From an uncultured Candidatus Saccharibacteria bacterium (GTDB lineage Bacteria > Patescibacteriota > Saccharimonadia > Saccharimonadales > AWTP1-31), in NCBI GenBank assembly GCA_964643545.1, contig CAZXTE010000001.1, forward strand, positions 19,101 to 83,100: DNA of 64,000 bases, given 5' to 3'. The notes under the pieces are model-generated. The model had not been told where the DNA came from and searched no databases. It was given only the letters and a program-made list of their open reading frames with translations. The position numbers and the translations under genes were made by a program. How positions within the stretch are numbered: the first letter of the stretch is position 1; every line of letters starts with the position of its first letter. Shown here piece after piece: positions 33,282 through 54,940 of the stretch.

Positions 33282-34355
33282 GTGATGGCAATCGTTAGTC
33301 TGCAACTAGAAAACTTTCGTACATACTACCGGGATAGTTTCGAATTCTCGGAAGGGGTTAGTATTATTGTTGGTCCAAATGCCAGCGGTAAAACCAATCT
33401 TCTGGAAGCTATACTACTGCTCTGTGAAGGCCAATCGTTTCGCGCCAAAGATCACGAACTTATTAGCCACGAAAAAGACTATGCCCGAATTGAAGGTTTG
33501 GTGGGTATAGATAAGCGCATTGTTTTGATAGAGCACGATGGGATAGAGCGAAGCACAAAAACACACCAGATAAACACCCAAAACCTAAAACGTTTACCAC
33601 CAGCAAAACGAGTGCCGGTGGTGCTGTTCGAGCCGGAAATTTTACAGCTTTTCCAGGGTGGACCCGAAAAACGAAGAGAGTATATAGATAGTCTGATTAG
33701 CCGGACTACCCCAGGATTCAACACAATACTGCGTCAGTACAGGCGGGTCTTAAGCCAACGAAACGCGTTGCTAAAAAGGCAGCAAGCACCAAAGCAGGAA
33801 GAGTTCTTTGCCTGGGATGTCCGACTAAGTGAATTGGGTGGTCAGATTGCCACTGCGCGCAATCAGCTCATCGACAATCTCAACAGCTCAATAAATGAGG
33901 AGTATCAGAAGATAGCTAGCAAGAACAATAATGTGAGCCTTGAGTATCTCTCTAAAATATCGTCATTGTCGTATAACACCAAAATGCTCCACATGCTCGA
34001 GCAGGTATTCCAAACCGATCGGGAACGGGGGTATACAAGTGTCGGGCCTCACAGAGACGACTTGCAAGTGCTTTTTGATGGTAAAGATGCGAAACAGGTA
34101 GCCTCCCGCGGCGAGATGAGATCATTGGTGTTAACACTAAAGATACTTGAGCTAAAGATCGTAGAAGAGGCAGCCCAAAAGCAACCAATACTACTACTCG
34201 ACGATGTGTTTAGCGAACTTGATGGTGCTCGCCGCAAGGCCCTGACAGAATCAATACAACAATACCAAACCTTTATTACGACCACAGACGCAGACCTAAT
34301 CGTGAAGTATTTTATTGGAGCCTGCGAAATAATCCCCACTAACAGAGCAGTCTAA
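33282..34355 (+). CDS. recF: DNA replication/repair protein RecF
   Basis: Walker A GPNASGKTNLLEAI, an ABC-signature-like region and LLLDDV Walker B. Confidence 0.9.
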   Translation: MMAIVSLQLENFRTYYRDSFEFSEGVSIIVGPNASGKTNLLEAILLLCEGQSFRAKDHELISHEKDYARIEGLVGIDKRIVLIEHDGIERSTKTHQINTQNLKRLPPAKRVPVVLFEPEILQLFQGGPEKRREYIDSLISRTTPGFNTILRQYRRVLSQRNALLKRQQAPKQEEFFAWDVRLSELGGQIATARNQLIDNLNSSINEEYQKIASKNNNVSLEYLSKISSLSYNTKMLHMLEQVFQTDRERGYTSVGPHRDDLQVLFDGKDAKQVASRGEMRSLVLTLKILELKIVEEAAQKQPILLLDDVFSELDGARRKALTESIQQYQTFITTTDADLIVKYFIGACEIIPTNRAV

Positions 34356-34987
34356 CGGTTGTTTATATTCCGTATGACTGACTCGGGAACTTTTGGAAAC
34401 TCTTTGATGTACAGAATGATCGTTGGACCTGCGGCAATTGACCAGGTGTTACCACTCTTCTTTAGAACAACCAACAAGATATCATCTTGTTCTGGGTCTA
34501 GCGGGAGGAGCTTCCCGGCATACCAGTCACCTCGCAGATAAAGCTTCCCATCGGAAATAGTGTATTTTGAGATATCATCGAAGTCGCTACGTATAACAGA
34601 CTCCACTGCAGACTTTTGAGGAACGAGCATTTCTTGCAAACGACTGTCGCTATACGAAAGTTCGGGGGTTTGAACGGTAGTTTTAGAGCTAATATTCAGT
34701 TGCTTGGATTCTGTTTTATACACACCACCACTAAAGACTGCGTTGTAATATCCTTTGGAGACTCTGACCGTTGTTTTCTCCTGAGTACGTACGATCTCTT
34801 TGGTGCTGGCTGGGTAGTTGGTGCCAGACTGGGTTAGTGTAATGGTTGTCCCTTGCTCTGGGATCAGAGTGACGCGCTTAAGGCCAAAGAAATATCGAAA
34901 ACCAAACCAGGCAACAAGCCCAAAAACCAACACAATAGCACCGAACGTTACCAGGCGCTTAATTTGAATTCGGGGTGGCTCTTCCAT
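34352..34987 (-). CDS. bitopic membrane protein, last gene of the T4SS-like minus operon (VirB8/PrgL-like candidate)
   Basis: Single N-terminal TM (LVTFGAIVLVFGLVAWFGF) and a ~170-aa extracytoplasmic domain. Confidence 0.5.
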   Translation of the reverse strand: MEEPPRIQIKRLVTFGAIVLVFGLVAWFGFRYFFGLKRVTLIPEQGTTITLTQSGTNYPASTKEIVRTQEKTTVRVSKGYYNAVFSGGVYKTESKQLNISSKTTVQTPELSYSDSRLQEMLVPQKSAVESVIRSDFDDISKYTISDGKLYLRGDWYAGKLLPLDPEQDDILLVVLKKSGNTWSIAAGPTIILYIKEFPKVPESVIRNINNR

Positions 34988-34988
34988 G

Positions 34989-35387
34989 TTAGTCTCCTGA
35001 CTGAAGGTCTCTAAATATTATTTCCAAATCACTAGGGTCATAACCTTGGGAGCGTATCCAGGTTAGTGCTTCTTGCCTGGCCTGTGGATCGGGGGCTTTA
35101 ATGAGAAGCGCTACCGAATCGTTACTGTCGGGTGAGACCAATGACTTCCCGTAATCTATACGGAAGTAGAGGCCGAGTGCAGGGAGTTTATCTACGATGC
35201 TGCTTTTTGCACGGACTGCCGCATCTTTTTCTTGGTAAGACGTACCACCTGCTCTTTCTTTTTCTTGGGTGCTTTTTGTATTGTTTGTTTGGGTCCTTGT
35301 CGTCACCCCAAGAATAAGTAGCCCGAACATGACGATGCCAATAAGTACGGCTATGACAATGATTTTGCTGCGTGGGTTTTCCTGCAT
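34989..35387 (-). CDS. small bitopic membrane protein
   Basis: N-terminal TM (IIVIAVLIGIVMFGLLILGV). It is co-oriented and tightly spaced with its neighbours. Confidence 0.5.
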   Translation of the reverse strand: MQENPRSKIIVIAVLIGIVMFGLLILGVTTRTQTNNTKSTQEKERAGGTSYQEKDAAVRAKSSIVDKLPALGLYFRIDYGKSLVSPDSNDSVALLIKAPDPQARQEALTWIRSQGYDPSDLEIIFRDLQSGD

Positions 35388-35400
35388 TACTTCGTCTCCC

Positions 35401-37821
35401 TTATTTAATTCTCGCTACCGAGAAGTGATGGCCACGATCTTCCAGGTAGGCGTTACCAGCTTGTGGCGCCTGGGAGCCGAGTGAAGCCTGGCGCATGTTA
35501 TACGTGCCTCCCTGTGTCCCGACGTAGATGAATGTGTGTCCCTGGTCACCCGCTGCATAGATCAGTATGTCACCCGGCAACAGCTTGCTTGTGTCGTTTA
35601 TATCGTCAAAAACGGTGTACTTTTCGGGATGACTTCGGAGATACTCAAGTTGTGTTCCGGTGTCGACTTTCGGGTAACTCGTGTCCACCCCGCTACTGAG
35701 CATAACCGTAGCCACAAACCCACCACAGTCAGTTACGTCGGGTGTCGGATTGAATTGTTTCTTGGTATCGAGGAATTTTTGTGTTGCCGTTGCCCCATGG
35801 CCTTTGTCCGGCCACGCGAGGCTTATTGCGGTAGCCACAACATCACCCGCAACAGCAGCATTCCCCCCGGCATCAGGAGACCCTGTGCAGGTACCTGCAC
35901 TAGACCCACCACCACCCCCAACATAGTCTGCACCAATTGCAACCTTGTCGTAGTCACCCTCAGTGTCGCCAGGCCAAGCGATTTGTGGGGCGCCCGGTTT
36001 CTCATCGAGGCCGCCTAAATAGGCAAAGATAGCTCCCGCCCCCATGCGTCCGCTGTTGTCCAAGCCGTAATTACCGTATCCATAGGCGGCAGAGCCCAGA
36101 TATGCACTCCAGGTATTGAGCCATTCGTTGGCCCCAAAAGTTCCATCCTGAATGGCTGCAATAACCTCGGCACCAGTCTTCTGTGGGTTTCTTCTTGTTG
36201 CATGAAGGATAAGAACCCAGGTCGAGTAGTCGATATCTTGCACATTAGACCCATAACCACGTCTAGCTGGGGCACGTCCAGGGACTTGCTCGGGAGTATC
36301 AAAGAATCCGGGCACGCCCACATCGGCGGAATGCCACTTGTACTGCTTGCCGCCCAACTCAGCAGCAGTCGGAAGCTTCCGGCCATTAATCATAGATTGT
36401 TCTGGGTTCGAACTGCCTTCACGCCAGTGCGTTGCTGCTAGTGCCTGCCACGGCACGCCCCAACGCGCCCCAATAGACTTGTAGACAGGGATCTCCCTCA
36501 CGATATCACTTTTTATAAGTGCATCGAGTTTTGACTCTAACCCCTTGCCTTTAATCATTACATTATCGGGGTAGGTCTTGTAGCTGGCGTCAGCGGGTGT
36601 CCCTGGGTTACCGCCACCCCCGCCAGGAGCTGGCGCCCCGGGTTGGCGGATTGCATTAATACGATCCAAAGACTGCTGGATGCGCTGATTCGTTATTTTT
36701 CCTGCCTTATAGTCGGATTCAAGCCGGTCAAGCACCTTCCCAACCGATGATTCATTCACAAAAACAGCCATGTCTGCGCCTGCCGCGATCGCCATAGACG
36801 TTGCCTCCTCTACGCCGTATTTAGACTTAATGGCTTCCATGGTGCCTATGTCGTCTGTCATTGCGACACCGTTAAAGCCGTATTTATCGCGCAATAGTTT
36901 ATAGGTCTCGGGGCTCAAACTCGTTGGTATGCCACCAGTTGTTAGTCCGGGCACATTAAGGTGGCCCAGCATAACAGCAGACCTCGGGTTCTTTAGTAGT
37001 TTTTCGTAAGGCTTTAAATCCCTACCCTCCAGAGTTGCTAAGTCACTGGTTGTCACAACCTGTTTGTGCGAATCGCCATTGGCATAACCATGACCTGGGA
37101 AGTGCTTAAACACGGGCGTAAGGTTGCCTTGGCGGAGTCCTTCGGCAAACGCGCCAGACTTTTTTTCTACAACCGCAGGATCTTTCGAGAATGCCCTGTC
37201 CAAGGGGCTAATAACGGCAGAGCCACCATCGAGGTCTGCCACAGGCGCAAAATCCATGGTTAGTCCAACGGCTGCAAGCTTGTCCGCTTGGCCCTTCGCA
37301 ATGCTCTGAACTTCTGTGTCTGTTTTCGTACCCATTTCCCGAGCACTGGGCACAACGCCGAGCGGACGAAAGCGCTGTACTTTACCGCCTTCTTCGTCGG
37401 CAGCCACCAACATGGGTACAGGACCGGCTTTGAACTTATCGATCCACGTTTTATCTTTCTGCTCAAATTGTCGTCCCATCAAGAAGACTCCCCCCACATG
37501 GCTATCAATCAAGGCTTGAGCTTCTGACTCATTTGTCACAGAGACCATCAACAGTTGGGCGAGCTTCCCGCGGATGCCCCACTCAGCTGGAATTTCATAG
37601 CTGGCGCCAGTTGTTGGGCCTGTTGTTTCGCACTTCTCTTTGGCGTAGTTTGTCTTGTGGTGTTCCGTGTTTAGGAGGATGTGGTACAGATCGTCCTCGG
37701 GTATTTTTGCAGCCATTCCAAGTGGGATGATTGCTTGGAAATACAGCATGGTGAGAATGAACGACGCGCAAAAGAGGCGGAACAGGTGCTTTTTCTTCAC
37801 TATAGACATAGACATAGGCAT
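35401..37821 (-). CDS. multidomain secreted cell-wall hydrolase: GH3 (NagZ-like beta-N-acetylhexosaminidase) + central unknown domain + C-terminal CHAP/NlpC-P60-like domain
   Basis: GH3 N-domain motifs (VGGVFLMGRQ, AADEEGG, KHFPGHG). C-terminal Cys...His pair (CGGFVATVML ... GHTFIYVG). The start is chosen at MPMSMSIVKKK (37821) to avoid overlapping the upstream stop. Confidence 0.7.
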   Translation of the reverse strand: MPMSMSIVKKKHLFRLFCASFILTMLYFQAIIPLGMAAKIPEDDLYHILLNTEHHKTNYAKEKCETTGPTTGASYEIPAEWGIRGKLAQLLMVSVTNESEAQALIDSHVGGVFLMGRQFEQKDKTWIDKFKAGPVPMLVAADEEGGKVQRFRPLGVVPSAREMGTKTDTEVQSIAKGQADKLAAVGLTMDFAPVADLDGGSAVISPLDRAFSKDPAVVEKKSGAFAEGLRQGNLTPVFKHFPGHGYANGDSHKQVVTTSDLATLEGRDLKPYEKLLKNPRSAVMLGHLNVPGLTTGGIPTSLSPETYKLLRDKYGFNGVAMTDDIGTMEAIKSKYGVEEATSMAIAAGADMAVFVNESSVGKVLDRLESDYKAGKITNQRIQQSLDRINAIRQPGAPAPGGGGGNPGTPADASYKTYPDNVMIKGKGLESKLDALIKSDIVREIPVYKSIGARWGVPWQALAATHWREGSSNPEQSMINGRKLPTAAELGGKQYKWHSADVGVPGFFDTPEQVPGRAPARRGYGSNVQDIDYSTWVLILHATRRNPQKTGAEVIAAIQDGTFGANEWLNTWSAYLGSAAYGYGNYGLDNSGRMGAGAIFAYLGGLDEKPGAPQIAWPGDTEGDYDKVAIGADYVGGGGGSSAGTCTGSPDAGGNAAVAGDVVATAISLAWPDKGHGATATQKFLDTKKQFNPTPDVTDCGGFVATVMLSSGVDTSYPKVDTGTQLEYLRSHPEKYTVFDDINDTSKLLPGDILIYAAGDQGHTFIYVGTQGGTYNMRQASLGSQAPQAGNAYLEDRGHHFSVARIK

Positions 37822-37828
37822 GGTGTTA

Positions 37829-40800
37829 TTAGCTCCCAGTATGAGACCAATGCCATGGCTCATTCCAGTACTGCTTTAGATTATACTTTCCGGCGTTATC
37901 TATGAGCCAGTCCCACATCGGCATGCCGGGGGCAACACGAGGGTTGCTGGGGCTAGCTTTCCCACCATTTTTTGTGCCAAACTCCTCAGGGTGACCAACT
38001 CGAGTAAGCGCAAAATCTACGGCATCACCAGACTGATGTCTAGATGTTCCAGGCTTTGCGACATCGGAGTAGACGCCGTTAGGGCACTTATCATCTTTTG
38101 CGCACAGCTCTTGTTGGTGCTTCATGGTGCGAAAACTACTGGAGGCTTTGGGTGAGACGCCATCGCTCTTCATGGCGTTAAACATGTTCACCCAATCATT
38201 TGATTTGTCTGCTGCCACGAGTACGTTACCATCTGCCCCATTTACGTAATATTGACTACGCGGATTACTCTCCTCGCTTGAACTTGGGAAGCCAAGGATC
38301 GCACACAGGGTTATCTTCTTTAGAACGCCACCTTCATACCCATCGGCAAGCCCCACGTTCTTGGTGCCACTTGCACAGGTTCCGTCGCCCGTACCTCCCG
38401 TAGAGGCGGGGGGTGGTCCAAGACTCGCCACAAGAAAGTCGCTCTTTGCCAGGTATCCTGCAGCAGTATGGTGAATTTTATCTGGCGCAAACGGATACTT
38501 AGCTGGATTTTTAGCCACCTCGGCACGCCAGTCAATGGGTGTATATTTCAGGGCAGCCGCCTGGCTCGAAACTGCCGCCGCGACAGCATCGTAATTGGAA
38601 ATTTGGGTTTTTGCATTCATCCAGAATATCTTCGCCGAGGGGTTGTATTCGTGGATTTTGTCGACCATGAGTTTTATTTTGCTCGCGAACTGGGGGCTGT
38701 CTGGTCCTGGGTTTGTGCCCAGCATGACCGCTATTGTCCCGGCACGGCTAACTTCGTTTCTATCGAGGTCGATCTTTTCTAGAGATCGGTCAACGTCTAT
38801 ACCGTCGGTTGCCTGGACCTTGGTAACTTCCCACCCAGCAGTTTGCAGCTTGTTCGTTAATGAGCCTAAGTCTTTCATGCCGTTTGTCAACGAGTCGCCA
38901 ACGACGTAGACTGCATTATTGCCACCCCCACTATTTGAACCTCCGCCCCCGCTGGTGGTTTCAGATTCATAATCTTCCGGGTCGAGCACATCAGTTGTAT
39001 ATCGGCCACCAGCTGCCGCCACAGCCTTCTTATTTAGCAAGCAAGGGTTTTCCTTGGTGTGCACGTCGGTGCCCGTCTCCTTGTCCTCTATAAGCGTACC
39101 TGCAAATTCACCGCGCCCATTCGCCCAGTCTTTATCCATCTTTTCACAGACGGCGTCGGTAAGCGTGTCTGGGTCAACATCAAGTGCTGACGAATTCTTT
39201 GGAAAGCCATATTGGACGACACCAAATGGGTCAGGCTTTGCATCTGCTGCAAAGGTCTTTTTGGTGGCAAGTAAACTGCCAAAACTTTTTGACAGGCTTG
39301 TGAATGGATTTGCGAGAAGACCGGTGACGCCTGTATTGGCGGTTCTAGTCACACTGCTGGGTGTAGCCATCGCCATTTGGCTGACAAGTGATTTTGGACT
39401 CTCTGTGCTGAACATACGAGCAAAGAATGGTTGACGTTGGAATTCCTCGTTGCGCTGATTCTCTTGGTCGGCGCGAATCTCGGCTACCTGGGCGTCGGTG
39501 AGGCGTATGCCCCCCAGGCCATAGTGTGCATCATTATTCCCTGCTACATCGGCACCGCCTGCGAGCATATCGAATGTGCGGGCCCCGCTCATGTCTGCAG
39601 ACACTGGTGACGGGATTAGCCACTTCGCAATTGTTTCGAATATCTTGCCGATTTGTTCCTCAATCATCTTCTTTAGGTCAGCGTATTGAGGAAAGATCTT
39701 GCTAATTGCTGCCTCGACAGCACCTACGCCCAGATCAATGAGCTTATTGATCAAGTTAAGGATTTGTCCGATTGTGGCGTTCCATGCATCTGCCGTCTGC
39801 CCGAGCAGACTAAGTGGGGGTTGATTAAAGATGTCAGATATTTTCTGGATGACCCCATTGGTAAGCAGACTTTCCTCTGGGCAAATAAGCTTACCGGTGT
39901 CTGGCTTATTCTTATCGTCACATGTGTATTTTGGCTCTGACGCAGTGCTGCCCGTTTCTGCTGCGTATGCTTTTTGCGGCGACAGGACATCCAAAAAGGA
40001 GCTTTTTTGTATTGGTTCGCCTAGGATGTCCCCGTAGAGTGGTGCTAATTCAGCGGGTTGATTTTTGTGGTCTTTATCACCGGCGCTGTCACCCACACCA
40101 TTCGTCATGCTACCGAGCAACTCGACGTTACAATGCATGCCTTTGCACTCGTCTGCAGTTGTTCTATACAGCATGTAGGTTGCCACCATTTGCGTGCCAA
40201 TAATTTCGTATTTCCAGCGTTTCAATGCCGGCCCAGCTGACTTAGCTTTCGCGGTAATTCTGGCTGCTAGGTCAATCCAGCCAATAACAGGCAAGCCTTT
40301 CGAGGCGGCTGACCCTGCAGCCTCTCCGGCAATCTTCGCAACAACCTCTTCAACAATAAAAGCAGTTAAGCTCTTGTCTGCGAGTTTAATTGTCTTCTCA
40401 ACAATTTTTTCTACGGTCTCCTCGGTGAATTCTTTGCCAGACTTCTCAAGTGCCTCACGAATTTGTTTCTCTATTTTGTCTCTCCTCACTCCGTCATTGT
40501 CAGCTTCACCCTTCGATGCTTTGTCCGAATCACAGGCAGGATCGATGATACACTCTAATACAAAACCCAGATGTTGAGTGTAGGGTATGATGACCCGGCG
40601 ATTAATGACGAGCCTGAAGGCTCCCTTCTTTTTGTCTTTCCAGTCGTCTATGCGATCTTTTGATTTGCACGCAAAAACACACCTCCGGATGCCGTATTTT
40701 TCTTCCAGAAGTCGCCCCACCTTGAATCGGTACATAACACGCTTCCACAATGTCTCTTCTTTGAAAGACTCACGTACTTTTATGCGAACATCATTTCTGC

Positions 40801-41575: not shown

Positions 41576-41601
41576 GGTTGTTTATACGGCTCCGACCATA
41601 G

Positions 41602-44387: not shown

Positions 44388-44427
44388 GCTACCTGTCTAC
44401 CCACTCCCTTGGTGCTCAATTGATAAT

Positions 44428-45471
44428 TTAACGCAGCGATATTATTACTTCACCATCGTCAGTCTTTGATTGACTGGGGTGGTTCTTCTCTGCCTCTCGT
44501 GCCAAACTATCAATCGGGCGATTATTCTCGATTGCTAGGTTCAGTATATCAGGCGCAGGTGCTGCTGTCACCCCTGGTGATTTTGGTTGTGCTTGCGGGG
44601 GCTGACTCGAAAGCGGCTGGAGCTTTCTGTGGTTACGAAACGACTCATCTGGGTGGCTTTTTTGCTCGTGTATCTTGTTTAGTAGCGCCTGCTCATTTGC
44701 GTCTGGTATTGCTGGCTTGGCAAAAGTCGGAGCAGGTGTTGACCCTCCCTGTGATTGCACGAACCAGCCTCCTGGGGGTGCGATATTGGTGCTCGGTGCT
44801 TGTTGCTCCCGAGCAACTTCACGCATGTGAGAGACTGCCTCTTGTTGGTGCACTTCCTTCGACTGGGCAATTTGGGCATCGAGCCGAGCGGCCGTTTGAT
44901 TATCAAAAATATCATCCTCTGCTCGAACATCTATGGTCGAGACCTGCTTTGGCAATTCCTCGACCGCTACAAGCCTGTCCGAGCTTGGCGCCATAGCTAA
45001 CGAACCGTAAGAGGGCTGTGCAAATAAGTTCACGTCCACGTTCTTAATAACCCAACCACGGCTGTCTATGGTTGTTGCCAGCGCCTTAAGGCGGCTTTTG
45101 ACTTCGTTCTGGCTAAGGTTATCAGAGAAGTTCTGTTCAATATGTTTTGGAACAGTTATCTTGACCAGTTCCTTCATGCCCGACTGGTCCCAAATGCGTT
45201 TACGTGGCTTAAAGTAAAAACGGAGCTTAGCGAGGAGCCATACCTCAGTGGGCTGATCTCGACCCCACGGGAACGCCAAAAACCCAAAGACAATCTCTAT
45301 AGGCAACAAAATAACCGCCACAAACCATACATTGTGTGTAAGGCCCAAGAAACTTATGTAAAGACTGGTTACAACAATCGCCCCAAAGATAAATTGTTTC
45401 AGCGTTAAGGGGCCAAGGAACTTATCCTCTGCCTCAATATCCTGGAGAACTTTATACGTAGCCACTAGCAT
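44428..45471 (-). CDS. VirB3/PrgI-like membrane protein with a long Pro-rich C-terminal tail
   Basis: Two N-terminal TM helices (FIFGAIVVTSLYISFLGL; WFVAVILLPIEIVFGFLAF) within the first 70 aa, as in VirB3/TrbD. The tail is Q/P-rich. Confidence 0.5.
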   Translation of the reverse strand: MLVATYKVLQDIEAEDKFLGPLTLKQFIFGAIVVTSLYISFLGLTHNVWFVAVILLPIEIVFGFLAFPWGRDQPTEVWLLAKLRFYFKPRKRIWDQSGMKELVKITVPKHIEQNFSDNLSQNEVKSRLKALATTIDSRGWVIKNVDVNLFAQPSYGSLAMAPSSDRLVAVEELPKQVSTIDVRAEDDIFDNQTAARLDAQIAQSKEVHQQEAVSHMREVAREQQAPSTNIAPPGGWFVQSQGGSTPAPTFAKPAIPDANEQALLNKIHEQKSHPDESFRNHRKLQPLSSQPPQAQPKSPGVTAAPAPDILNLAIENNRPIDSLAREAEKNHPSQSKTDDGEVIISLR

Positions 45472-45523
45472 TTAGTATCTGATATTCATCAGAAGCATGC
45501 AAGTTTTATAGAGGAAACTTGTA

Positions 45524-46495
45524 CTAAAGAGCTGGAGGTCCGGCAGGTGGTGCTGGAGGTGCAGCGGGCGGAGGCGGCAGTGCAGCTATGCGGGCAGCCT
45601 CTGCCGTAGCAGCTGCCTGGGCATCCAGATTGGCAGTTGCAAGTGCGGCAGTAGTTTGTATCTCGTTTAAGACCGCCCGCTCTGCATCGTATCTACCGAC
45701 GGCTGCATCAAGCAGGTTCACTCTCGTTTCTTTGGGGGTAGAAGCGCGTTTGTATTGAGGGCTAAATTCACCCAGAATTTTAAAAGCATCAAATCCACCA
45801 CCCTCCTTGTCGGGTCGCCTAGGGCGTTCCCGGGCAATGGGCATGTTGCTCTCGAATGGACCAAGGTCAGGCGTTGGGGAATAGGAGGTATCCTCTCCTA
45901 GGAGTGCTGGCCCCCGTGATGGAACGTGGCCTTCAAAGAATTCAAGCCCTGTCCCCACAATCCTACCAAGCGCTCCTGGATCGTCAGAGACGTGTTTTCT
46001 GCGACCCGTTGGGATGACTTCACGCCTAATGCTAAACACGGCAAATATTGGAGAGCCGCCGTCTCGGGCAACTTCCACCGGTGTGCTATAGGTTGTTTCA
46101 ACGCGTCCTATCGGCTGCTCTTCTCGCGAAATTCTGCCAGGTATGCGACTTCGCCGGTCTATACCAGGCCCTCTTGTTCGCAGGGCGTTTTGTCGCATGC
46201 GATCGGGCTCGCTTCTTTGGGTACGCTCTGCATCAACACCAATTCGCTGGATTAAGTCATCAACGTCTGCGGCTACTCGCTCTTGTTCTCCGTAGAATTC
46301 AAGCACAGCTTCCGCACCCCTGTGAATGTCCTGTGTTGCCTCAACGTGCGCTTCCCTTGTAGCCTCTTCATCATCACGTCGATCGTGTCTGGCCGTCTGT
46401 AATCTACGACGGAGGTCTTCTTGGTAGGCTGCTTGTTCTGGGCTAGGGATATCGCTCATAGTGTATTTTTGTTTTAATAGTGAGTAACAAATCAA
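45524..46495 (-). CDS. hypothetical charged protein with a C-terminal poly-Pro/Ala tail (VirB10-like linker candidate)
   Basis: The track start is a TTG. An ATG is possible at 46459 (MSDIPSP). The protein is Arg/Asp/Glu-rich and ends PPPPAAPPAPPAGPPAL. GC is higher than its surroundings. Confidence 0.5.
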   Translation of the reverse strand: MICYSLLKQKYTMSDIPSPEQAAYQEDLRRRLQTARHDRRDDEEATREAHVEATQDIHRGAEAVLEFYGEQERVAADVDDLIQRIGVDAERTQRSEPDRMRQNALRTRGPGIDRRSRIPGRISREEQPIGRVETTYSTPVEVARDGGSPIFAVFSIRREVIPTGRRKHVSDDPGALGRIVGTGLEFFEGHVPSRGPALLGEDTSYSPTPDLGPFESNMPIARERPRRPDKEGGGFDAFKILGEFSPQYKRASTPKETRVNLLDAAVGRYDAERAVLNEIQTTAALATANLDAQAAATAEAARIAALPPPPAAPPAPPAGPPAL

Positions 46496-46547
46496 CAGTA
46501 CACTATTTTGGTTAATAAGTCAACAAGGTTGTGTAAAGTCATCTATA

Positions 46548-49500
46548 CTATTGGCGCTTGGTGGGGTCGTTGCCAACATCTATTGGGATATCCTCTCCAG
46601 GAAGTGGGGTACCGGACCGTCCCGCTGGACCACCCGGTACAGTTGAGCGTGTTGGAGTACCGGCTATGGGGTCTGCTCTGCCTGTGGTGCCTACCTCGCG
46701 GCTCCACTCGACGGGGTCAGTTGCGGCGTGCCCTGTAGCTGGGTCGATCCTAGAACTAGTTTCAAATAATGCGTAAAAGTTCTCCATTTCTTCTTTGGTG
46801 CGTCCGCTAGCACCACCACCAACTTGGGTGATCATTCTTCCAGTTGGGGTACCGCTTGCCGTCATTTCCGGTACTGTCTGGCCGATGCTGCGTGCAATTC
46901 GAGCACCACGTTGGATAACTTCATTTGCGGCTGCCTGTTCATCGGCTGTTGCAGCTGGGTTAGCGAGTGTGGTACGAGCACGAACGACTTCTTCTGACAT
47001 TGTAGTCCAGGTGTCCGGATGCTGTTGTGTCATCTGGTATGTGCCTTGGCGTTCATCGATCTCTTGCATAAGGGCTGTGGCATTCATGGTTAGTCCATTC
47101 TCGCCGTATTGGTAATGCTTCCACTCGCGGTCGGTATTCTGGTTGGCGAAGGCCGCACCCGTCCATATGCCACCCATTTGGCCTGTAGTAGCATTTTCGG
47201 CAGCACCACCACGTGTTGCTAGGCGACCAACGTTCTGGTACAGGTAATCATGTTGTTCTTGGGTGGTGGCTTTGCGCATTTCGTAACTAAGAGCGTACTG
47301 TGCAGCATCTTGGTCCCCACGCCAGCGATTGTGTGCCGCATCCACGGCACTTTCGTCGACCCATTTCCCACCAAGTGTTTTATATTGACGTGTATTATTG
47401 TGGATTCGAACATGACCATTCCCGTCCGGGTCGTAGAGGTTGCCGGCTATAGCATCGGCCTCCGCCTTGTTTACAGTCAGTGCTCGTACCTCAGTATCAT
47501 CCCCGGTAGAGGTCAGCTGCTCCATTCGTTTTTGTGTTTCGCCACGCATTGCTGTAATACCCTCCTCGAGGTTATAGCCACCAACACGCCCCTGCAAGAA
47601 TCGCGCGCTTCTGCCAAACCGACCGCCCCTGCTGGCGTAGGTGCCAAGGGCACGGTATTGACGATCTCGTGCTGTTAGCATGCGGCGCTGCACATCTTGT
47701 TTGGCCTGTTCTTTGCGACTTTTGGTGAGCCCTCCAACCTTTGCGGTGCCCCCAGCAACGGCTGCATAGAGTTTGCCCATGGCTCCCCCGGCAAACTTGA
47801 AAGCAAAAGGAATCAGGAATAATGGGATAATTTGCAGCGAGAATGCGATGAGACCCGCAAGTCCCGCGGAAACAGGGTTGGGACTTCCGGAAGTCCCTAC
47901 GGCGTCATTTGCTACGAGTATTGTTGCGCTCAATATGCTGGCAGTCGAGAATATAACAACAACAATTGGGAACACTAGTAATGTCTCGAATAATAAGTTC
48001 CACCACTTTTTAAAATATTGTTCGGTATTTGGGAGGCAGTACAAAGCAAATGCAACGGGGCTGACCATAATGAGGGCTAATATAATGCCGCGCCGAATAA
48101 CGAGCGTTGCAAAGACCGCAAGGATGGCTAACATTGCCGGAACGACAATGCCGATAAGAATAAAAACTGCCGCCTTCCCCAGGAACCCTGCCGTTAAAAA
48201 CCCACCCAGGAACCCTGCAATACCTGCAGCCCCAAGAAACAATGCGAGAACAGTAGTTAGTACTGCGCCAAGTTGCGCCCCTGGGCTGGGAGCTGCATGA
48301 AGCAAATCGGCCACTGGGGCCATCATGAGCTGGGCAATTCCCTTGCCAAGAACGTTGGTGATGTCCACGAGCAAAGCCACAATGTAGACAGATAAGTTTA
48401 TGAGTATGGCCGCTATTAATATGCGTGGCATCACTTTCTTGGCTGTATACGCATCGATAATGCCTCCACCGATAGTTTGCCCAAAAACAATGACCAGCAT
48501 GGCTATGATGAGGAATATATTGCCATAAACGCGAAATGCCGACCACGCCTTGAAGCTCGGGTCTGATGGGTCGGTAGAAACAGGGCTGGTATATAAAAGA
48601 GGGGATACAAGATTCTTAAAAAGCCAGTCAGTTGTTTCGGCAAACATATTAAAGACAGGGCAAAGTATCCAGTTTAGGCTAAAACCAGATGCTTCGCAGG
48701 TGGCGTTTGTGTCGTCCGATGTGCCGTCCGTGTTCCCACCCCCAGACGGGTTACTGCCCCCACTATTATCTCCCTGATTTCCTTTAGAATCTTCAATTTG
48801 TTTCTGGTAATCGCCATCAAGATCCTTCATGAGCTTAGATAGGTCTGGGGTAAAGCCGTCATCTTCCAAAATATGGAAACATTTTTTATTCTTGTCGCCG
48901 CCACACTGCTGAGAGTTACTGTTCGTATCTAGATTATAGACGAGACTACTCCCGACCATCTGCACTGCGTAATTATCTGCCGTGATTGCGGCACTGGACC
49001 ATGTTACGTCATCTTGGTCTACTTCAAAGTCTTGATTGATGGTGAGTGCAATTGTTATCTCTTTGCCATCCTTGTCCTTTATGACGGATGCTGCACCACT
49101 ATTGTTGTTGCCAGGCAGCTTAATGAGACGAAAGCGAAAATTACCCGACTTTTTTAGAAAGGCGAGCTTGTCTGCCTGGGCACTAGCTTGTATGTAGTCT
49201 TTATCGCCAGCTTTAATTTTAAAGTGGACGCTTACTTTTCTTTGATTAAGTGGGCTGATATCGATACGTGACGTACATGTCTTGTCTCGATACGATTTGT
49301 CGGCAAACTTTTGGTGTTCCTCCCAGACCCCTGAGCTCTTAAGCTTTGAGTAGAGCTTTTCGGCTTGATCTGCATAAAACCTCTTGGTGCTCGCGTCGCC
49401 GCCATTACGAATGTCCCACAAGTGGTCCTGATCTTTGGGGTTGCCTTTCTGGTAGGTAAATGTGCCAGGAAAGCACAGGTCCATGGTAAGCCGTGCATCT

Positions 49501-49844
49501 CCATTAACAAATGTGGCAATACGGGGCGCAGCTACTGTAGAAAACTCAGCCGAGGCAGTCTTATAGGTATAGTCACCATTATCCGGGATAGATTCTGCTT
49601 TGTTATCGGCGCGAATGTAAGGCAAGTCTCGATCCGTGCGGGTTGTAAAGACATCCTTTCCCGGAACACGATTATAATTTGAGTTCACATCGTCATCATA
49701 AGGACTGGTAGCGTATGCTATTTGTGGCGTGAAAATAATAACGCCAGCAAGAAGCTGCAGGATGATAAATGATATAAAAGCAAATGGAATAAGCTTGCGG
49801 TTAGATCTCACAACTGAAGTATAGATTAACGGAATTAAATACAC
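46548..49844 (-). CDS. VirB6/TrbL/PrgH-like polytopic T4SS channel protein with large N-terminal extracytoplasmic and C-terminal soluble domains
   Basis: 1098 aa with a signal/TM at the N-terminus and a central block of about 7 TM helices (residues ~420-650). Both termini are hydrophilic. Confidence 0.6.
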   Translation of the reverse strand: MYLIPLIYTSVVRSNRKLIPFAFISFIILQLLAGVIIFTPQIAYATSPYDDDVNSNYNRVPGKDVFTTRTDRDLPYIRADNKAESIPDNGDYTYKTASAEFSTVAAPRIATFVNGDARLTMDLCFPGTFTYQKGNPKDQDHLWDIRNGGDASTKRFYADQAEKLYSKLKSSGVWEEHQKFADKSYRDKTCTSRIDISPLNQRKVSVHFKIKAGDKDYIQASAQADKLAFLKKSGNFRFRLIKLPGNNNSGAASVIKDKDGKEITIALTINQDFEVDQDDVTWSSAAITADNYAVQMVGSSLVYNLDTNSNSQQCGGDKNKKCFHILEDDGFTPDLSKLMKDLDGDYQKQIEDSKGNQGDNSGGSNPSGGGNTDGTSDDTNATCEASGFSLNWILCPVFNMFAETTDWLFKNLVSPLLYTSPVSTDPSDPSFKAWSAFRVYGNIFLIIAMLVIVFGQTIGGGIIDAYTAKKVMPRILIAAILINLSVYIVALLVDITNVLGKGIAQLMMAPVADLLHAAPSPGAQLGAVLTTVLALFLGAAGIAGFLGGFLTAGFLGKAAVFILIGIVVPAMLAILAVFATLVIRRGIILALIMVSPVAFALYCLPNTEQYFKKWWNLLFETLLVFPIVVVIFSTASILSATILVANDAVGTSGSPNPVSAGLAGLIAFSLQIIPLFLIPFAFKFAGGAMGKLYAAVAGGTAKVGGLTKSRKEQAKQDVQRRMLTARDRQYRALGTYASRGGRFGRSARFLQGRVGGYNLEEGITAMRGETQKRMEQLTSTGDDTEVRALTVNKAEADAIAGNLYDPDGNGHVRIHNNTRQYKTLGGKWVDESAVDAAHNRWRGDQDAAQYALSYEMRKATTQEQHDYLYQNVGRLATRGGAAENATTGQMGGIWTGAAFANQNTDREWKHYQYGENGLTMNATALMQEIDERQGTYQMTQQHPDTWTTMSEEVVRARTTLANPAATADEQAAANEVIQRGARIARSIGQTVPEMTASGTPTGRMITQVGGGASGRTKEEMENFYALFETSSRIDPATGHAATDPVEWSREVGTTGRADPIAGTPTRSTVPGGPAGRSGTPLPGEDIPIDVGNDPTKRQ

Positions 49845-49931
49845 AAAACTAACTACAGTCGTTAAGGTGATTGCGCAAAATAATGACTTTTATGGTTAAA
49901 TAAAGAGTACTAACGCAACACGTAATAAAAA

Positions 49932-50450
49932 ATGAACGAAAACAATAATCAAACACCAGCAGAAACCGTAGACTACAGTTTCATAACGGATCAACCCACG
50001 GCATCTCCAAAAAAGAAACCTAATAAAATGATCGCCATATTTCTCGGGTTGACGTTGCTCGTTATTTTGGCGGCGGGCTTACTGTTGTTAGTACAGTCCA
50101 AAAAAAGCACAACCAAAAGTAACATCGACGCAGAACAGGTCGTCCGACAACTTTTTGTAGATATGGGGAACGGGGATAATATCGCCGCCCTAAACGCATT
50201 TACGGGGCCAAATAAGCCGGATGCTGCGTACCTTGAGGGCTACTTAATAGCTCCGCTGAAGAATGATTACTTGGTAGATTCATGCACATTTACCTCTTCA
50301 GAAACAAAAGTAGCTAGCTATTACCAGGTCAAGGCATCTTGCCCACAAAAGCAAGCAAGTAACATCAGAATTCGTGTAGACTTTACAGTTATGAGACAAG
50401 AGCTATCATCGAAAATTGTTGCATACTCTCTTGGCGGGGTAGATACGTGA
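49932..50450 (+). CDS. bitopic membrane protein with NTF2/SnoaL-like ectodomain (VirB8-like candidate)
   Basis: TM (IAIFLGLTLLVILAAGLLLLV), then QLFVDMGNGDNIAALNAFTG, typical of the NTF2-like fold that VirB8 adopts. Confidence 0.5.
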   Translation: MNENNNQTPAETVDYSFITDQPTASPKKKPNKMIAIFLGLTLLVILAAGLLLLVQSKKSTTKSNIDAEQVVRQLFVDMGNGDNIAALNAFTGPNKPDAAYLEGYLIAPLKNDYLVDSCTFTSSETKVASYYQVKASCPQKQASNIRIRVDFTVMRQELSSKIVAYSLGGVDT

Positions 50451-51433
50451 AATTGGTAAAGCGGGTTCACACCGCCGGATTAGTTATCCTATCTGTCGCT
50501 GGTCTACTTAGTGCAACATTATTCGTACATCCAAAATCGGTCCAAGCAGCCGCGCCAATATGCTATGAGCTACTCGGCAGCTCTGGTAATGATGTCCGAG
50601 TGGCTGACTGTAATAATCCCACAGTAGTTACTTTAAGAGACCAAAAGTACCCTGCTGACAAAAAATTTCTTGACGATCACTGTTACCTATATGGTGGATT
50701 TGGATTTTTCATAAAACGAGGTTTAACAGAAGTGCCGCCTGCGAGCGATGCAAATAAGAAATACACCTGTGAGTGGGCAAGAAAAGCGGCGGCTGCAGGT
50801 CAGGCAGCCGCTCCAAAATGTTACTTATTCTCTCGTGCGACGTTGGACGATTACTTTTCATTTAAATTTGCCGCTACAGATATCAAGGAAACTGCGTGCA
50901 CGCAAGAATTAAAGAATTACTACAGGTTTGTTCACAATCCTAAAGAAATAGAAAGCGGGTGGTGCTACCTATTCAGCCAAGATCATAACAACATCCAGAC
51001 ATCATGTGCAGACCTTCTTTCCAATATTGCAACTGCAGATAGTAGCGGAGGCGGGGGCGGCGGCACCTCCAGTTGCGCAAGCGATCCAACGCTTTCTTTC
51101 TGTGTGGACCTGCCGGTTAAGACCAATGATACGTGCGGCGAAGCTGGTAGCGGTACGGAAGTCCAGATATCGATCAATGTGGGATGTGTGGGCAAAGGTA
51201 ATGGCATTCTTGATCTGACCTTTGCGCTCATTCGATTTCTCTCTTATGGTGTGGGCATTGCCATGGTGGCCTCTTTAGTTGTTGCTGGCATACAGTACAG
51301 CTCCTCTAGAGGTGATCCACAGGCTACCAGCAAGGCAATAGGTCGTGCGCAGAGCACTGTTGGGGCGTTACTTCTGTTCTTGTTTATATATGCTATATTG
51401 AACTGGATAATACCCGCAGGACTCTTGAAATGA
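50447..51433 (+). CDS. secreted Cys-rich protein with C-terminal VirB2/TrbC-like pilin domain (tip/adhesin pilin candidate)
   Basis: Signal peptide. About 16 Cys with internal CY[EL]L/CYLFS repeats and a Gly6 linker. The C-terminus has two hydrophobic helices separated by SSSRGDPQ, as in the downstream pilins. Confidence 0.6.
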   Translation: MKLVKRVHTAGLVILSVAGLLSATLFVHPKSVQAAAPICYELLGSSGNDVRVADCNNPTVVTLRDQKYPADKKFLDDHCYLYGGFGFFIKRGLTEVPPASDANKKYTCEWARKAAAAGQAAAPKCYLFSRATLDDYFSFKFAATDIKETACTQELKNYYRFVHNPKEIESGWCYLFSQDHNNIQTSCADLLSNIATADSSGGGGGGTSSCASDPTLSFCVDLPVKTNDTCGEAGSGTEVQISINVGCVGKGNGILDLTFALIRFLSYGVGIAMVASLVVAGIQYSSSRGDPQATSKAIGRAQSTVGALLLFLFIYAILNWIIPAGLLK

Positions 51434-51819
51434 CACTCCCCCTAACCTATTTTGCAGCAGCTTGTGAAGCTGGGAAAGACACCGCCGGGCAGGTGTTAAA
51501 CTTCTTTGCATTTCCTACGTGGTACAAATATCTTGAAGGGCAGACTATCACAAGTAACGGTGCCGCAGAATGTGCCCCTAAAATCACTAAGATTGGTGAT
51601 GCCTGGTTGGTGTTGGCGGCTGTTATAGAAATAATGCTACGAGTCGGTGCACTCATTGCGATAGCATTTGTTATCTATGGGGGCATATCGTTTATTACCA
51701 GCGAAGGACAGCCAGATAAAGCATCAAAAGCCAGGAGCACAGTAATAAATGCAGTTATTGGGCTGGCACTTTCGATTTCGGCATCGGCGGTAATCTCTTT
51801 CATAGCAAGGAGCTTTTAA
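51430..51819 (+). CDS. VirB2/TrbC-like pilin paralog 2
   Basis: 129 aa with two hydrophobic helices flanking TSEGQPDK and a Cys pair near the N-terminus. It overlaps the upstream gene (ATGA). Confidence 0.6.
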   Translation: MTLPLTYFAAACEAGKDTAGQVLNFFAFPTWYKYLEGQTITSNGAAECAPKITKIGDAWLVLAAVIEIMLRVGALIAIAFVIYGGISFITSEGQPDKASKARSTVINAVIGLALSISASAVISFIARSF

Positions 51820-52140
51820 GTGACATTCAACGTATTTGCACAAACACAGCCCCCACCTACTTCACAGGTTGGTGTTTGTACTACAGATTTGTGCAACACA
51901 AATCTGCCCGCAGTGAGTGCAGGAAGCACGCAAGTGACTACGGTTTTGCAGATCTTGTTTGGAGTGGTAGCAGTGCTGGCGCTTATTTATGTCATTTTGG
52001 CAGGTTTGAAGCTCATCACTTCCAGCGGTGATCCTCAGTCAGTAGCAAAAGGACGACAACAGATACTCTTTGCAGTTATTGGCCTGACAGTTGCACTCAG
52101 CGCCGAACTAATCATTTCATTTGTAATCAACAGGCTATAA
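51820..52140 (+). CDS. VirB2/TrbC-like pilin paralog 3
   Basis: 106 aa with a CTTDLC pair and two hydrophobic helices flanking TSSGDPQS. Confidence 0.6.
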   Translation: MTFNVFAQTQPPPTSQVGVCTTDLCNTNLPAVSAGSTQVTTVLQILFGVVAVLALIYVILAGLKLITSSGDPQSVAKGRQQILFAVIGLTVALSAELIISFVINRL

Positions 52141-52142
52141 TC

Positions 52143-52550
52143 ATGAGAAAATTAACACTAGTTATGGCAACCGTACTAGGCAGCATGCTTTTTGCGCTGC
52201 CGAATACAGTATTTGCGGTAGATGTTTTTGGGGGGTCGGACGGTGCTTGTACACAAGCAAATACCACGGGCGAAGTTCCGGAAATATGTAAGGACACCGT
52301 GAACGCAACGGGCGAGAACCCTATAGTAGGGCCGAGTGGTATTGTCACCAAGGGTTTACAAGTACTCGTCATTGTAATCGGCATCATTGCGGTTGTGATG
52401 TTAGTAATCTCTGGGCTACGACTTATTATGTCGGGCGGTGATCCAAAAAATGCGGCCAGCGCACGAGATGGCATACTGTACGCCGGTATTGGTATAGTAG
52501 TAGTAGTGACTGCACAACTGCTGATCAACTTTGTATTAACAAAACTGTAA
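52143..52550 (+). CDS. VirB2/TrbC-like pilin paralog 4
   Basis: 135 aa with a signal peptide, a C..C pair, and helices flanking MSGGDPKN. Confidence 0.65.
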   Translation: MRKLTLVMATVLGSMLFALPNTVFAVDVFGGSDGACTQANTTGEVPEICKDTVNATGENPIVGPSGIVTKGLQVLVIVIGIIAVVMLVISGLRLIMSGGDPKNAASARDGILYAGIGIVVVVTAQLLINFVLTKL

Positions 52551-52558
52551 AGGAAAAA

Positions 52559-52969
52559 ATGAAAAAAATTGCCCGTTTCAGGAAAAACTTGGTAGTAGCA
52601 CTGGCGTCTGTGTTCTTCTTAGTACCGCTCTCGCCTGTTCTGGTGCATGCAGGACCATTCGACAGCGCCAAAGACGCAGCATGTAAGGGTTTAAATTTTG
52701 ACGACCCTACGGCCACGTGTGCTGCAGGCTCTAAGGACGCAGAAACAAATGCCAAGCTAAAGACGGCCGTGAATCTTTTGTCGGCTATTGTGGGTGTAAT
52801 TGCAGTAGTTATGATTATCATTGCAGGCATGAATTTTATAACTGCAGGAGGAGATTCGGGCAAAGTTTCAACTGCCAGGAATATGATTCTGTACGCTGCA
52901 ATTGGTATTGTAGTTGTAGCCCTCGCACAACTGATCGTCCGCTTTGTCTTGCAACGATTCGGGAAGTAG
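52559..52969 (+). CDS. VirB2/TrbC-like pilin paralog 5
   Basis: 136 aa with a signal peptide, a C..C pair, and helices flanking TAGGDSGK. The C-terminus is ALAQLIVRFVLQRFG. Confidence 0.65.
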   Translation: MKKIARFRKNLVVALASVFFLVPLSPVLVHAGPFDSAKDAACKGLNFDDPTATCAAGSKDAETNAKLKTAVNLLSAIVGVIAVVMIIIAGMNFITAGGDSGKVSTARNMILYAAIGIVVVALAQLIVRFVLQRFGK

Positions 52970-53031
52970 CTGTTGTAACTTCCCTCAAAGTTGTGATATA
53001 AACATAAGTAGCAATATAGAAAGGTAAAAGA

Positions 53032-53460
53032 ATGATTAAAAAATTAAAACGTTTAGTAGTTGGCTTCACCGCTTCGGCTGCACTGTTAATGCCTTTGGCT
53101 ATACCTGTGGCTGTTCACGCGCAAACGACTGAAGACATTGGAAAGAACTTTTGTCAGGGGGCAGACATAACACTCGGTACTGGTACGGGTAGCTCTGCAA
53201 CCTGTGATACCAAAGATGCAGAAAGCAAAGTGAATACTACCGTAAAGAACTCGCTCAATCTTTTTTCGGCAATAGTTGGTATTTTGTCTGTAGTCATGAT
53301 CATTATTGGTGGTGTTAAGTACATCACCTCTGGTGGTGAATCTGGCAAGGTTACCTCAGCCAAAGACAGCATTTTGTTTGCGGTCGTCGGATTGATTGTC
53401 GTGGCTCTTGCACAACTGATCGTCCGCTTCGTCTTGCAACGATTCGGTAACCCCACCTAA
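53032..53460 (+). CDS. VirB2/TrbC-like pilin paralog 6
   Basis: 142 aa with a signal peptide, a C..C pair, and helices flanking TSGGESGK. Its 3' 38 nt are near-identical to those of paralog 5 (52925-52962 versus 53410-53447, one mismatch). Confidence 0.65.
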   Translation: MIKKLKRLVVGFTASAALLMPLAIPVAVHAQTTEDIGKNFCQGADITLGTGTGSSATCDTKDAESKVNTTVKNSLNLFSAIVGILSVVMIIIGGVKYITSGGESGKVTSAKDSILFAVVGLIVVALAQLIVRFVLQRFGNPT

Positions 53461-54792: not shown

Positions 54793-54829
54793 AAAAAGAG
54801 CCTACAATTTTGGCTCAGTACTCTTCTCA

Positions 54830-54919
<90 letters not shown>

Positions 54920-54940
54920 AGACTAGCTTTTCGTGTTACG

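Follow-up and report, generated by a model that had tools for sequence, protein, structure and literature searches.

What use does a bacterium have for a type IV secretion system (T4SS) standing beside its chromosomal replication genes, with neither a relaxase nor a coupling protein in view? The question is raised by a locus in a stretch of 64,000 nucleotides from an uncultured Candidatus Saccharibacteria bacterium (assembly GCA_964643545.1, contig CAZXTE010000001.1, positions 19,101 to 83,100). This whole stretch is called the window below, and all positions refer to it. Two divergent gene sets between positions 34352 and 53460 encode the apparatus. With a probability of roughly 85%, the locus is a chromosomal T4SS of the Saccharibacteria type, which originated from the monoderm conjugation machinery of the mating-pair formation class FATA (MPF-FATA) and was repurposed for an epibiotic lifestyle. 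An initial annotation, made from the sequence alone, had proposed a monoderm-type, chromosomal, and non-mobile T4SS beside recF. This is backed by the invariant synteny of the locus in related genomes and by a published cluster of orthologs.

Organization and chromosomal position of the locus

The map of open reading frames (ORFs) places nine ORFs on the minus strand, from 49844 down to 34352, with spacings of -35 to +52 bp (46548-49844, 45524-46495, 44428-45471, 43515-44387, 41602-43515, 37829-41575, 35401-37863, 34989-35387, and 34352-34987). Seven ORFs follow on the plus strand from 49932 to 53460, with spacings of -4 to +62 bp (49932-50450, 50447-51433, 51430-51819, 51820-52140, 52143-52550, 52559-52969, and 53032-53460). 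The two divergent operons of the initial annotation match these coordinates exactly and its nine minus-strand genes stand, but the plus-strand genes number seven and not eight. Compared with L001, the closest relative at hand (88.8% nucleotide identity across 31596-53482), each of the 16 ORFs has an excess of substitutions at third codon positions, the pattern of coding sequence. The two most doubtful ones, p323 and p172, pass this test with third-position fractions of 0.65 and 0.55. The GC content of the T4SS operon, 0.49-0.53, is slightly higher than that of its flanks, 0.42-0.47. Between the operons lies a gap of 87 bp (49845-49931), the presumed site of both promoters. The length of this region was given correctly before, but a sigma-70 promoter scan of the locus stayed at chance level, with zero consensus matches inside the gap, and its promoter role is presumed from the arrangement of the genes.

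Relatives of VirB4 are present in at least 580 species-representative genomes. The best 80 were used for comparison, and all of these are Candidatus Saccharibacteria/Saccharimonadales metagenome-assembled genomes at 81-100% identity. The same context was found throughout the related loci, in an invariant order: a phosphoribosyltransferase gene, hsp20, the pilin array, the VirB6-like gene, a variable slot, prgI, trsD, virB4, large proteins 1 and 2, one or two small transmembrane (TM) proteins, and then the convergent recF-dnaN-dnaA-rnpA-yidC series. In every locus with at least 9 kb beyond VirB4 (58/58), recF and dnaN lie downstream in the same orientation, and wherever recF was located (62 loci) it runs convergently to the T4SS operon. 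Where at least 9 kb upstream could be compared (54 loci), 50 showed the pilin array; in the other four it apparently lies beyond the fetched flank. Because 58 of 58 loci agree in place and orientation by recF-dnaN-dnaA, the locus is a vertically inherited core chromosomal locus and not an integrative and conjugative element (ICE).

The genes of the locus differ widely in conservation. Median identity across related loci is 85.5% for VirB4 (80 species), 72.6% for DnaA, 71% for TrsD (76 loci), 65.4% for DnaN, 48.7% for RecF, 42.5% for PrgI, and 36-45% for the pilins. VirB4 is more conserved than DnaA, DnaN, and RecF, which are encoded only a few kb away.

In the window itself, dnaA (30393-31904), dnaN (32160-33251), and recF (33282-34355) are on the plus strand (Pfam). 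RecF abuts the locus, being convergent with the gene of the small membrane protein p211 and overlapping it by 4 bp. The earlier placement beside recF and oriC is thus exact for recF. Its oriC part depends on gene context and a broad turn in GC skew (~26-44 kb), because DnaA boxes (TTATCCACA, at most one mismatch) are not enriched: the window holds 19 against 15 expected, and no cluster was found near dnaA (30131-30392 and 31905-32159).

Among the roughly 60 ORFs of the window with 80 amino acids (aa) or more, the ORF at 22736-23794 (+) excepted, a Pfam screen revealed no relaxase, coupling protein, or integrase, and the sole P-loop protein of the TraG/AAA_10 type among the screened ORFs was VirB4. 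Direct repeats of the att type that bracket the locus were searched for and none were found, nor is there an adjacent tRNA on the recF side. The initial annotation had seen no relaxase or VirD4-type coupling protein (T4CP), and this extends to the screened ORFs of the whole 64 kb. No oriT was noted either, though no search aimed at it was made. Its statement that the locus is not inside a mobile element agrees with the missing integrase, the missing repeats, and the invariant position in relatives.

Motor, anchor, and channel

Profile searches with Pfam and NCBIfam recovered VirB4, PrgI/VirB3, the VirB6/TrbL-like group, the hydrolases, and the pilins. The VirB4-family ATPase (637 aa; 41602-43515, minus strand) is of the Gram-positive MPF-FATA, CD1110 type. 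Its score of 346.8 bits against NCBIfam NF045971 (conju_CD1110; profile positions 182-734 of 752) exceeds the cutoff of 325, and its closest solved structure is PDB 4ag5, the C-terminal domain of VirB4 from Thermoanaerobacter (7.8e-47); both matches uphold the earlier assignment. Pfam matches include P-loop_TraG (1.5e-26), AAA_10, and DUF87. The Walker A motif AKSGAGKS was read directly in the sequence, and the Walker B motif is ILIVDE.

The N-terminal ~180 profile positions are missing from this VirB4. A domain homologous to the missing part is encoded by the neighboring gene for a TrsD-like protein (290 aa; 43515-44387, minus strand), which went unrecognised in the first reading. This protein matches the NCBIfam TrsD model (1e-5) and also aligns with VirB4 models at their N-terminal positions (CD1110 4-118 and Mbov_0397 100-250). 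The stop codon of its gene and the start codon of VirB4 share one nucleotide (TAATG). Judging by these profile alignments, the VirB4 motor is split, the TrsD-like ORF supplying the N-terminal piece and the next ORF the ATPase.

The third component is a PrgI/VirB3-like protein of 347 aa (44428-45471, minus strand), whose PrgI domain (aa 7-93) contains two TM segments. The match to PF12666 (3.4e-11, 44 bits, cutoff 27) confirms the VirB3-like protein that had been proposed. A C-terminal extension of ~250 aa is conserved among relatives, and full-length coverage was obtained in 70 or more loci.

The channel is represented by an extended VirB6/TrbL-like polytopic membrane protein of 1098 aa (46548-49844, minus strand). 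It consists of an N-terminal signal or TM segment, an ectodomain of ~390 aa, a core with 6-7 hydrophobic segments (aa ~433-686), and a hydrophilic C-terminal domain of ~400 aa. Conservation of the core extends to ~60 loci; the ectodomain (aa 1-390) is matched in 0-2 loci and is confined to the window and its closest relative. The window protein aligns with Pfam TrbL nearly over the full length of the profile (aa 445-666 on profile positions 5-203 of 215), but its own E-value is 2.2. The orthologous cores provide the significance: 7 of 60 match TrbL at E<=0.01, the best at 1.6e-5, and zero competing families were found. The VirB6-like call of the initial annotation therefore holds for the orthologous group. 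A profile of the core searched against PDB sequences gave chance-level matches only.

Pilin array

Five VirB2-like pilin genes occupy 51430-53460 on the plus strand (51430-51819, 51820-52140, 52143-52550, 52559-52969, and 53032-53460). All five products score above the gathering threshold of the T4SS_pilin family PF18895 (27.7-51.2 bits against 26.6), and two of the five also have weak matches to TrbC/VirB2 (PF04956). A sixth pilin-like gene, p328 (50447-51433, plus strand), encodes 328 aa with a signal peptide, a Cys-rich ectodomain of ~225 aa, and a C-terminal VirB2-like hairpin. Its T4SS_pilin match (E=0.0062, aa 268-321) is below the cutoff, and its C-terminus aligns with the five pilins over the TM-loop-TM core. 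The six VirB2-like pilins that had been counted are accordingly the five above the Pfam cutoff and the C-terminus of p328. Pairwise identity among these six sequences is 16-48%. The p328 protein is conserved only at its C-terminus (47-49 loci), and the Cys-rich head was found only in the window and the closest relative. An array of six is the mode among relatives (22/36).

Cell wall hydrolases

Two very large peptidoglycan hydrolases had been recognized in the locus, and this activity is predicted by domains of GH3 (glycoside hydrolase family 3), NlpC/P60, and VanY, whose catalytic motifs are intact. Large protein 1 (1248 aa; 37829-41575, minus strand) is anchored by a TM segment and has ~770 aa without a family, followed by an SGNH/GDSL domain and a C-terminal VanY/M15 DD-peptidase. 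VanY is matched at 3.9e-15, and Lipase_GDSL_2 is borderline (1.6e-7; 32.4 against a cutoff of 32.9). The motifs GDSL (aa 893), DKIHH, SRHQSGDAVD, and EPWH are all intact. For the N-terminal aa 1-768 (window 39272-41575), no Pfam match was found in 59 orthologues and no match among PDB sequences. The segment at aa ~600-800 is the widest-matched part of the protein (31-33 of 52 related loci).

Large protein 2 (820 aa; 35401-37863, minus strand) is exported or anchored. It comprises a GH3 domain of the LpqI/NagZ beta-N-acetylglucosaminidase type (aa ~94-408, window 36652-37584; PF00933, 1e-63), an unassigned middle, and, at its C-terminus, an NlpC/P60 cysteine peptidase domain. The motif read in this protein is KHFPGHGYANGDSH, with KHFPGHG...DSH in the GH3 domain. 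NlpC/P60 is represented by the motifs DCGGF and GHTFIY and by a Pfam NLPC_P60 match of 0.0023, which is below the cutoff. The solved structures nearest to the GH3 domain are 4yyf (1.9e-70), LpqI 6gfv (1.1e-64), and 5iob, within a range of 1e-57 to 1e-70 and at an identity of ~50% as estimated by eye from the alignments, whereas other bacterial NagZ enzymes match at only ~1e-33. We take 4yyf and 5iob to be actinobacterial in origin. LpqI is a mycobacterial enzyme (PMC6572805). The T4SS hydrolase may have captured its GH3 domain recently from the Actinobacteria, the phylum of the host.

Both large proteins are conserved in place and size among related loci (800-1700 aa for protein 1 and 390-1080 aa for protein 2), and their domains vary. 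Among 59 species, protein 2 contains Phage_lysozyme2 in 32, GDSL in 15, M23 and C39_2 in 9 each, Glucosaminidase, Amidase_3, and CHAP in 6 each, NlpC/P60 in 5, Amidase_2 and SLT_2 in 4 each, and GH3 in 3. The C-terminus of protein 1 carries VanY in 20 of the 59, GDSL in 7, M23 in 3, and others. The GH3 domain of the window is a rare variant, as only 3 of 59 species have it there. Unlike in most relatives, Pfam detected no SLT or lysozyme domain in the window hydrolases.

Small membrane proteins and the variable slot

Three single-pass membrane proteins accompany these components. The p211 protein (211 aa; 34352-34987, minus strand; TM aa 7-36) is encoded by the last gene of its operon, the one whose 4-bp overlap covers the recF stop codon. 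Its neighbor p132 (132 aa; 34989-35387, minus strand) has a TM segment at aa 5-33. With jackhmmer, the p211 family was found in 40 loci, always right before recF, and the p132 family in 27 loci. The two families share members and, by this sequence relationship, are paralogous. The structure prediction for p211 suggests a small alpha/beta domain that comes after a beta-sandwich. Its AlphaFold2 confidence (pLDDT 44.8) makes it unusable for a test of a VirB8-like fold; the alignment behind it consisted of 4 sequences, and the homologue search returned 1-3 matches even with a 15-sequence family profile.

The third protein, p172 (172 aa; 49932-50450, plus strand), heads the pilin operon, and its family occurs in 19 loci (jackhmmer). 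In its model, a TM helix precedes three helices and a sheet of four strands, and this C-terminal alpha3-beta4 domain has an NTF2-like topology. Confidence is 55.7 overall and 57-81 in the domain, and the fold matches are non-decisive. The NTF2/VirB8-like protein of the initial annotation was not confirmed, and p172 is a plausible best candidate for it, as far as a model of moderate confidence can indicate. The small TM proteins form diverged families that keep their positions, and unassigned proteins with such positional conservation are likely structural parts.

Of a different kind is the slot that separates the VirB6-like gene from prgI. In the window it holds p323 (323 aa; 45524-46495, minus strand), an Ala/Arg/Pro/Glu-rich protein with no TM segment and zero Pfam or NCBIfam matches. 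Its only homologue among related loci is in L001, against which its substitutions by codon position are 24/23/89. Across the related loci, 33 of 58 have 1-4 ORFs in the slot, among them L004, L007, L012, L014, L033, L043, L047, L075, and others. These 45 ORFs fall into 41 BLAST clusters, meaning that almost all are mutually unrelated; their lengths are 129-771 aa, and those checked have zero hydrophobic segments. We considered p323 as a conserved component and rejected this: it is a lineage-specific orphan in a variable slot. The slot ORFs may code for cargo, for effectors, or for adaptors that evolve fast.

Relationship to described systems

The T4SS of Southlakia epibionticum (SEML1_0006-0019), which resembles Gram-positive conjugative systems, was found to be essential by transposon sequencing (Tn-seq) (Wang et al. 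2023, Cell; PMC10633639). Its pilin series is essential, neither a coupling protein nor a relaxase was recognisable in it, and the cluster is essential for epibiotic growth on the host, Actinomyces (PMC10633639). According to the supplementary tables of that study, the window maps gene for gene to SEML1_0001-0022, with the T4SS cluster corresponding to SEML1_0004-0019, and the counterparts are essential by Tn-seq except for the NTF2-like gene (PMC10633639). The 1098-aa protein corresponds to SEML1_0013 (TrbL/VirB6), PrgI to SEML1_0010, the TrsD-like protein to SEML1_0009, the 1248-aa protein to SEML1_0007 (with a C-terminal Hedgehog/DD-peptidase fold), the 820-aa protein to SEML1_0006, and the pilins to SEML1_0014-0019. 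By position, p132 corresponds to SEML1_0005 (exported, PEGA/immunoglobulin-like, essential) and p211 to SEML1_0004 (prealbumin-like plus BT0923-like, essential).

The likeness extends to small details. Both loci have the 4-nt overlap with recF, two small exported proteins of putative beta-sandwich fold, two large hydrolases, an overlap of 1 nt where the TrsD-like gene meets virB4, a TrsD-like protein of 290 aa, and six divergent pilins. They are bordered by dnaA-dnaN-recF on one side and by hsp20, a ComF-like phosphoribosyltransferase, and tRNA-Ser (SEML1_0020-0022) on the pilin side, and a relaxase and T4CP are absent from both clusters. There are also differences. The window has one large VirB6-like protein, whereas S. 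epibionticum has two (SEML1_0011 and SEML1_0013). The orphan 323-aa gene occupies the position of the NTF2-like SEML1_0012, which was matched to TraM and is non-essential; the window candidate p172 instead heads the pilin operon. The second hydrolase of the window carries GH3 in place of lysozyme-like domains, and the first has an extra GDSL domain.

A survey of 2,474 virB4 genes from Patescibacteria describes an affinity to MPF-FATA with TrsD, PrgI, and VirB6, pilin arrays of 2-11 genes with a mean VirB2 identity of 25%, the absence of a relaxase, and a location near dnaA, dnaN, and rnpA (Quinonero-Coronel et al. 2025, Microb Genom; PMC12102498). A few Patescibacteria do carry relaxases (PMC12102498). 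As described there, the clade is alike in kind to the window, which is a further Saccharimonadia instance. The initial annotation suggested that such a system may be poorly described. This is out of date, because every peculiarity noted in that first reading is already in print: the system was described in 2020-2025, and the window is one more environmental example. Measured against the consulted part of the survey, the gradient of conservation, the census of hydrolase domains, and the slot for orphan genes are incremental detail.

The Gram-positive MPF-FATA systems used for comparison were Trs of pGO1/pSK41, Prg/Pcf of pCF10, the CD1110 family of C. difficile CTn2, and Tra of pIP501. The window shares with them a VirB4 that passes the CD1110-family cutoff, a TrsD-like protein encoded separately (compare pGO1), PrgI, a VirB6-like channel, a membrane-anchored multi-domain wall hydrolase after VirB4 (compare PrgK and TraG), and the lack of an outer-membrane core. 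It differs from them in that the cluster is without relaxase and T4CP, chromosomally fixed, vertically inherited, and equipped with VirB2-like pilins, which to our knowledge are otherwise absent from Gram-positive T4SSs. No PrgB-type adhesin was seen in the window, and the hydrolases differ from theirs in domain content, which is also variable. With the Gram-negative VirB/VirD4 systems (MPF-T), the locus has in common TM-loop-TM pilins (PF18895, weakly PF04956) and homologues of VirB3, VirB4, and VirB6. Unlike MPF-T, it belongs to a monoderm envelope and has six pilin paralogues instead of one, and no VirB5, VirB7, VirB9, VirB10, VirB11, or VirD4 was detected in the window. We know of no earlier T4SS demonstrated to be essential for the survival of its owner, and of no other monoderm T4SS with VirB2-type pilins.

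Probable function

Host interaction instead of conjugation is probably the use of the system. The initial annotation had suggested a use other than conjugation, such as attachment to or feeding on a host, and this is in line with the lack of mobility genes in the window and with the orthologous cluster that is essential for epibiotic growth (PMC10633639). A mechanism can be proposed in which VirB4/TrsD, docked through PrgI to the VirB6-like channel, would power the extraction of pilins from the membrane, and the extracted pilins would assemble into a pilus-like conduit. The hydrolases would cut peptidoglycan locally, so that the structure crosses the wall of the epibiont and probably breaches that of the host. 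The machine would then move proteins or other molecules, not relaxase-bound DNA, between epibiont and host, and would do so with no DNA processing. A review describes an essential monoderm T4SS bearing a pilus and, as a speculation, sees in this pilus a route for signals or for uptake from the host (PMC12857230).

The contrast between a near-frozen cytoplasmic motor and surface-exposed modules that evolve fast, namely ectodomains, catalytic domains of the hydrolases, and pilins, suggests adaptation to different host envelopes. A bolder extension, which we regard as speculative and rather unlikely, is that a host-range cassette is mounted on the near-invariant motor, consisting of the VirB6 ectodomain, the Cys-rich p328 head, the pilins, the mix of lytic domains, and the orphan slot. 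The whole would form a feeding or injection tube with hydrolases matched to the peptidoglycan chemistry of the host, the orphan slot would encode translocated effectors, and p172 and p211/p132 would provide a VirB8-like scaffold.

Several points weigh against a host-directed T4SS. A VirB8 equivalent is not established, and the VirB6 call for the window protein depends on its orthologues. A pilus, a translocated substrate, and a direction of transport are hypothetical so far, in the literature as well as here. The hydrolases could act solely in remodelling of the cell's own wall. A T4CP homologue may be present elsewhere in the genome, beyond the inspected 64 kb; S. epibionticum has such a homologue, far from virB4 and non-essential (PMC12102498).

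Among other explanations, the one that survives best is a purely adhesive pilus, with hydrolases that remodel the bacterium's own wall and nothing translocated. We consider it unlikely. The six pilin genes, an array that is conserved among relatives, would fit such a pilus, as would the lack of a substrate-recruiting T4CP among the screened ORFs, and the variable ectodomain of p328 could be an adhesin. However, Saccharibacteria already adhere by type IV pili (PMC10633639, PMC11623550), and the extreme shuffling of lytic domains is hard to explain if the target is their own conserved wall. The LpqI-type GH3 domain, closest to actinobacterial enzymes, suggests that host-wall chemistry matters.

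Next in order is a DNA-uptake machine, which is clearly less probable. Helicobacter ComB and archaeal Ced are T4SS-derived importers that operate without a coupling protein and relaxase, and the absence of both is common to the locus and ComB. VirB4 is weakly similar to the models of CedB (1.4e-12) and CedD (8.6e-6), although the CedB similarity is limited to the generic P-loop region. A ComF-like phosphoribosyltransferase (K02242) lies just past the pilin array, and these organisms are unable to make nucleotides (PMC10633639). In S. epibionticum, however, deletion of comEC abolishes transformation and leaves viability unaffected, while the T4SS is essential (PMC12857230). Because the loss of comEC ends competence without a loss of viability, an essential role in DNA uptake is argued against.

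A conjugative element or decayed ICE remnant, with its relaxase, coupling protein, and integrase outside the window, is extremely improbable and was rejected on the mobility-gene screen, the repeat search, and the invariant synteny: VirB4, TrsD, PrgI, and VirB6 are homologous to Gram-positive conjugation proteins, the GC content of the operon is slightly raised, and relaxases do occur in a few Patescibacteria (PMC12102498), but the position and orientation by recF-dnaN-dnaA are constant in 58 of 58 species, the 64 kb show neither flanking repeats, a recF-side tRNA, nor mobility genes among the screened ORFs, VirB4 is under stronger constraint than DnaA, and the orthologous cluster is essential for growth.

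Other features of the window

Upstream of dnaA, Pfam identified rnpA, yidC, and jag (28360-30130, minus strand). On the pilin side, the locus is followed by hsp20 (53522-54004, minus strand), the gene for the ComF-like phosphoribosyltransferase (54124-54792, plus strand), both assigned by Pfam, and two tRNA-Ser genes (54830-54919 and 54941-55033, minus strand). An ORF of 102 aa at 54779-55087 (+) overlies these two tRNA genes on the opposite strand and is almost certainly no gene. An Rfam scan of the window returned tRNAs only.

The last 21 nt of a tRNA-Arg (55795-55815) are repeated with 95% identity at 55902-55922, 107 bp downstream (window 55741-55922). The repeat falls inside the ORF 55818-56216 and resembles an att-type remnant. 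The ORFs after this tRNA, up to 57755, encode an unknown protein of 132 aa, a DUF7347 helix-turn-helix protein, and an Exo_endo_phos nuclease. They have no counterpart in the fetched related loci, which the limits of the flanks may explain.

Positions 1-28363 form a large region of surface-glycan biosynthesis, its glycan cluster lying at 1-23 kb, with RmlD, RmlA, a GtrA-like protein, UDP-glucose dehydrogenase, several epimerases, glycosyltransferases GT2/GT4, a YfhO-like protein, a Wzm/Wzt ABC exporter, one protein with a Wzy_C domain, and another with FG-GAP repeats. No family could be assigned to five of its ORFs (11440-17853). An isolated ORF of 137 aa (23819-24232, minus strand), located 10 kb from the T4SS locus and beside the Wzy_C ligase-like gene, has only a transposase-type helix-turn-helix (HTH_Tnp_1, HTH_23) and is probably the remnant of an insertion sequence.

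Significance

The requirement of this T4SS for epibiotic growth is presumed here by analogy with the Tn-seq results for S. epibionticum. If the host-range explanation were true, the wall-cutting enzymes would be tuned to the peptidoglycan chemistry of the host. The 80 related loci could guide experiments, as they separate the parts that are frozen (VirB4 and TrsD) from those that are swapped (lytic domains, ectodomains, pilins, and the orphan slot). The system probably lies behind the life of a very large bacterial radiation, most of it uncultured, at the expense of other bacteria.

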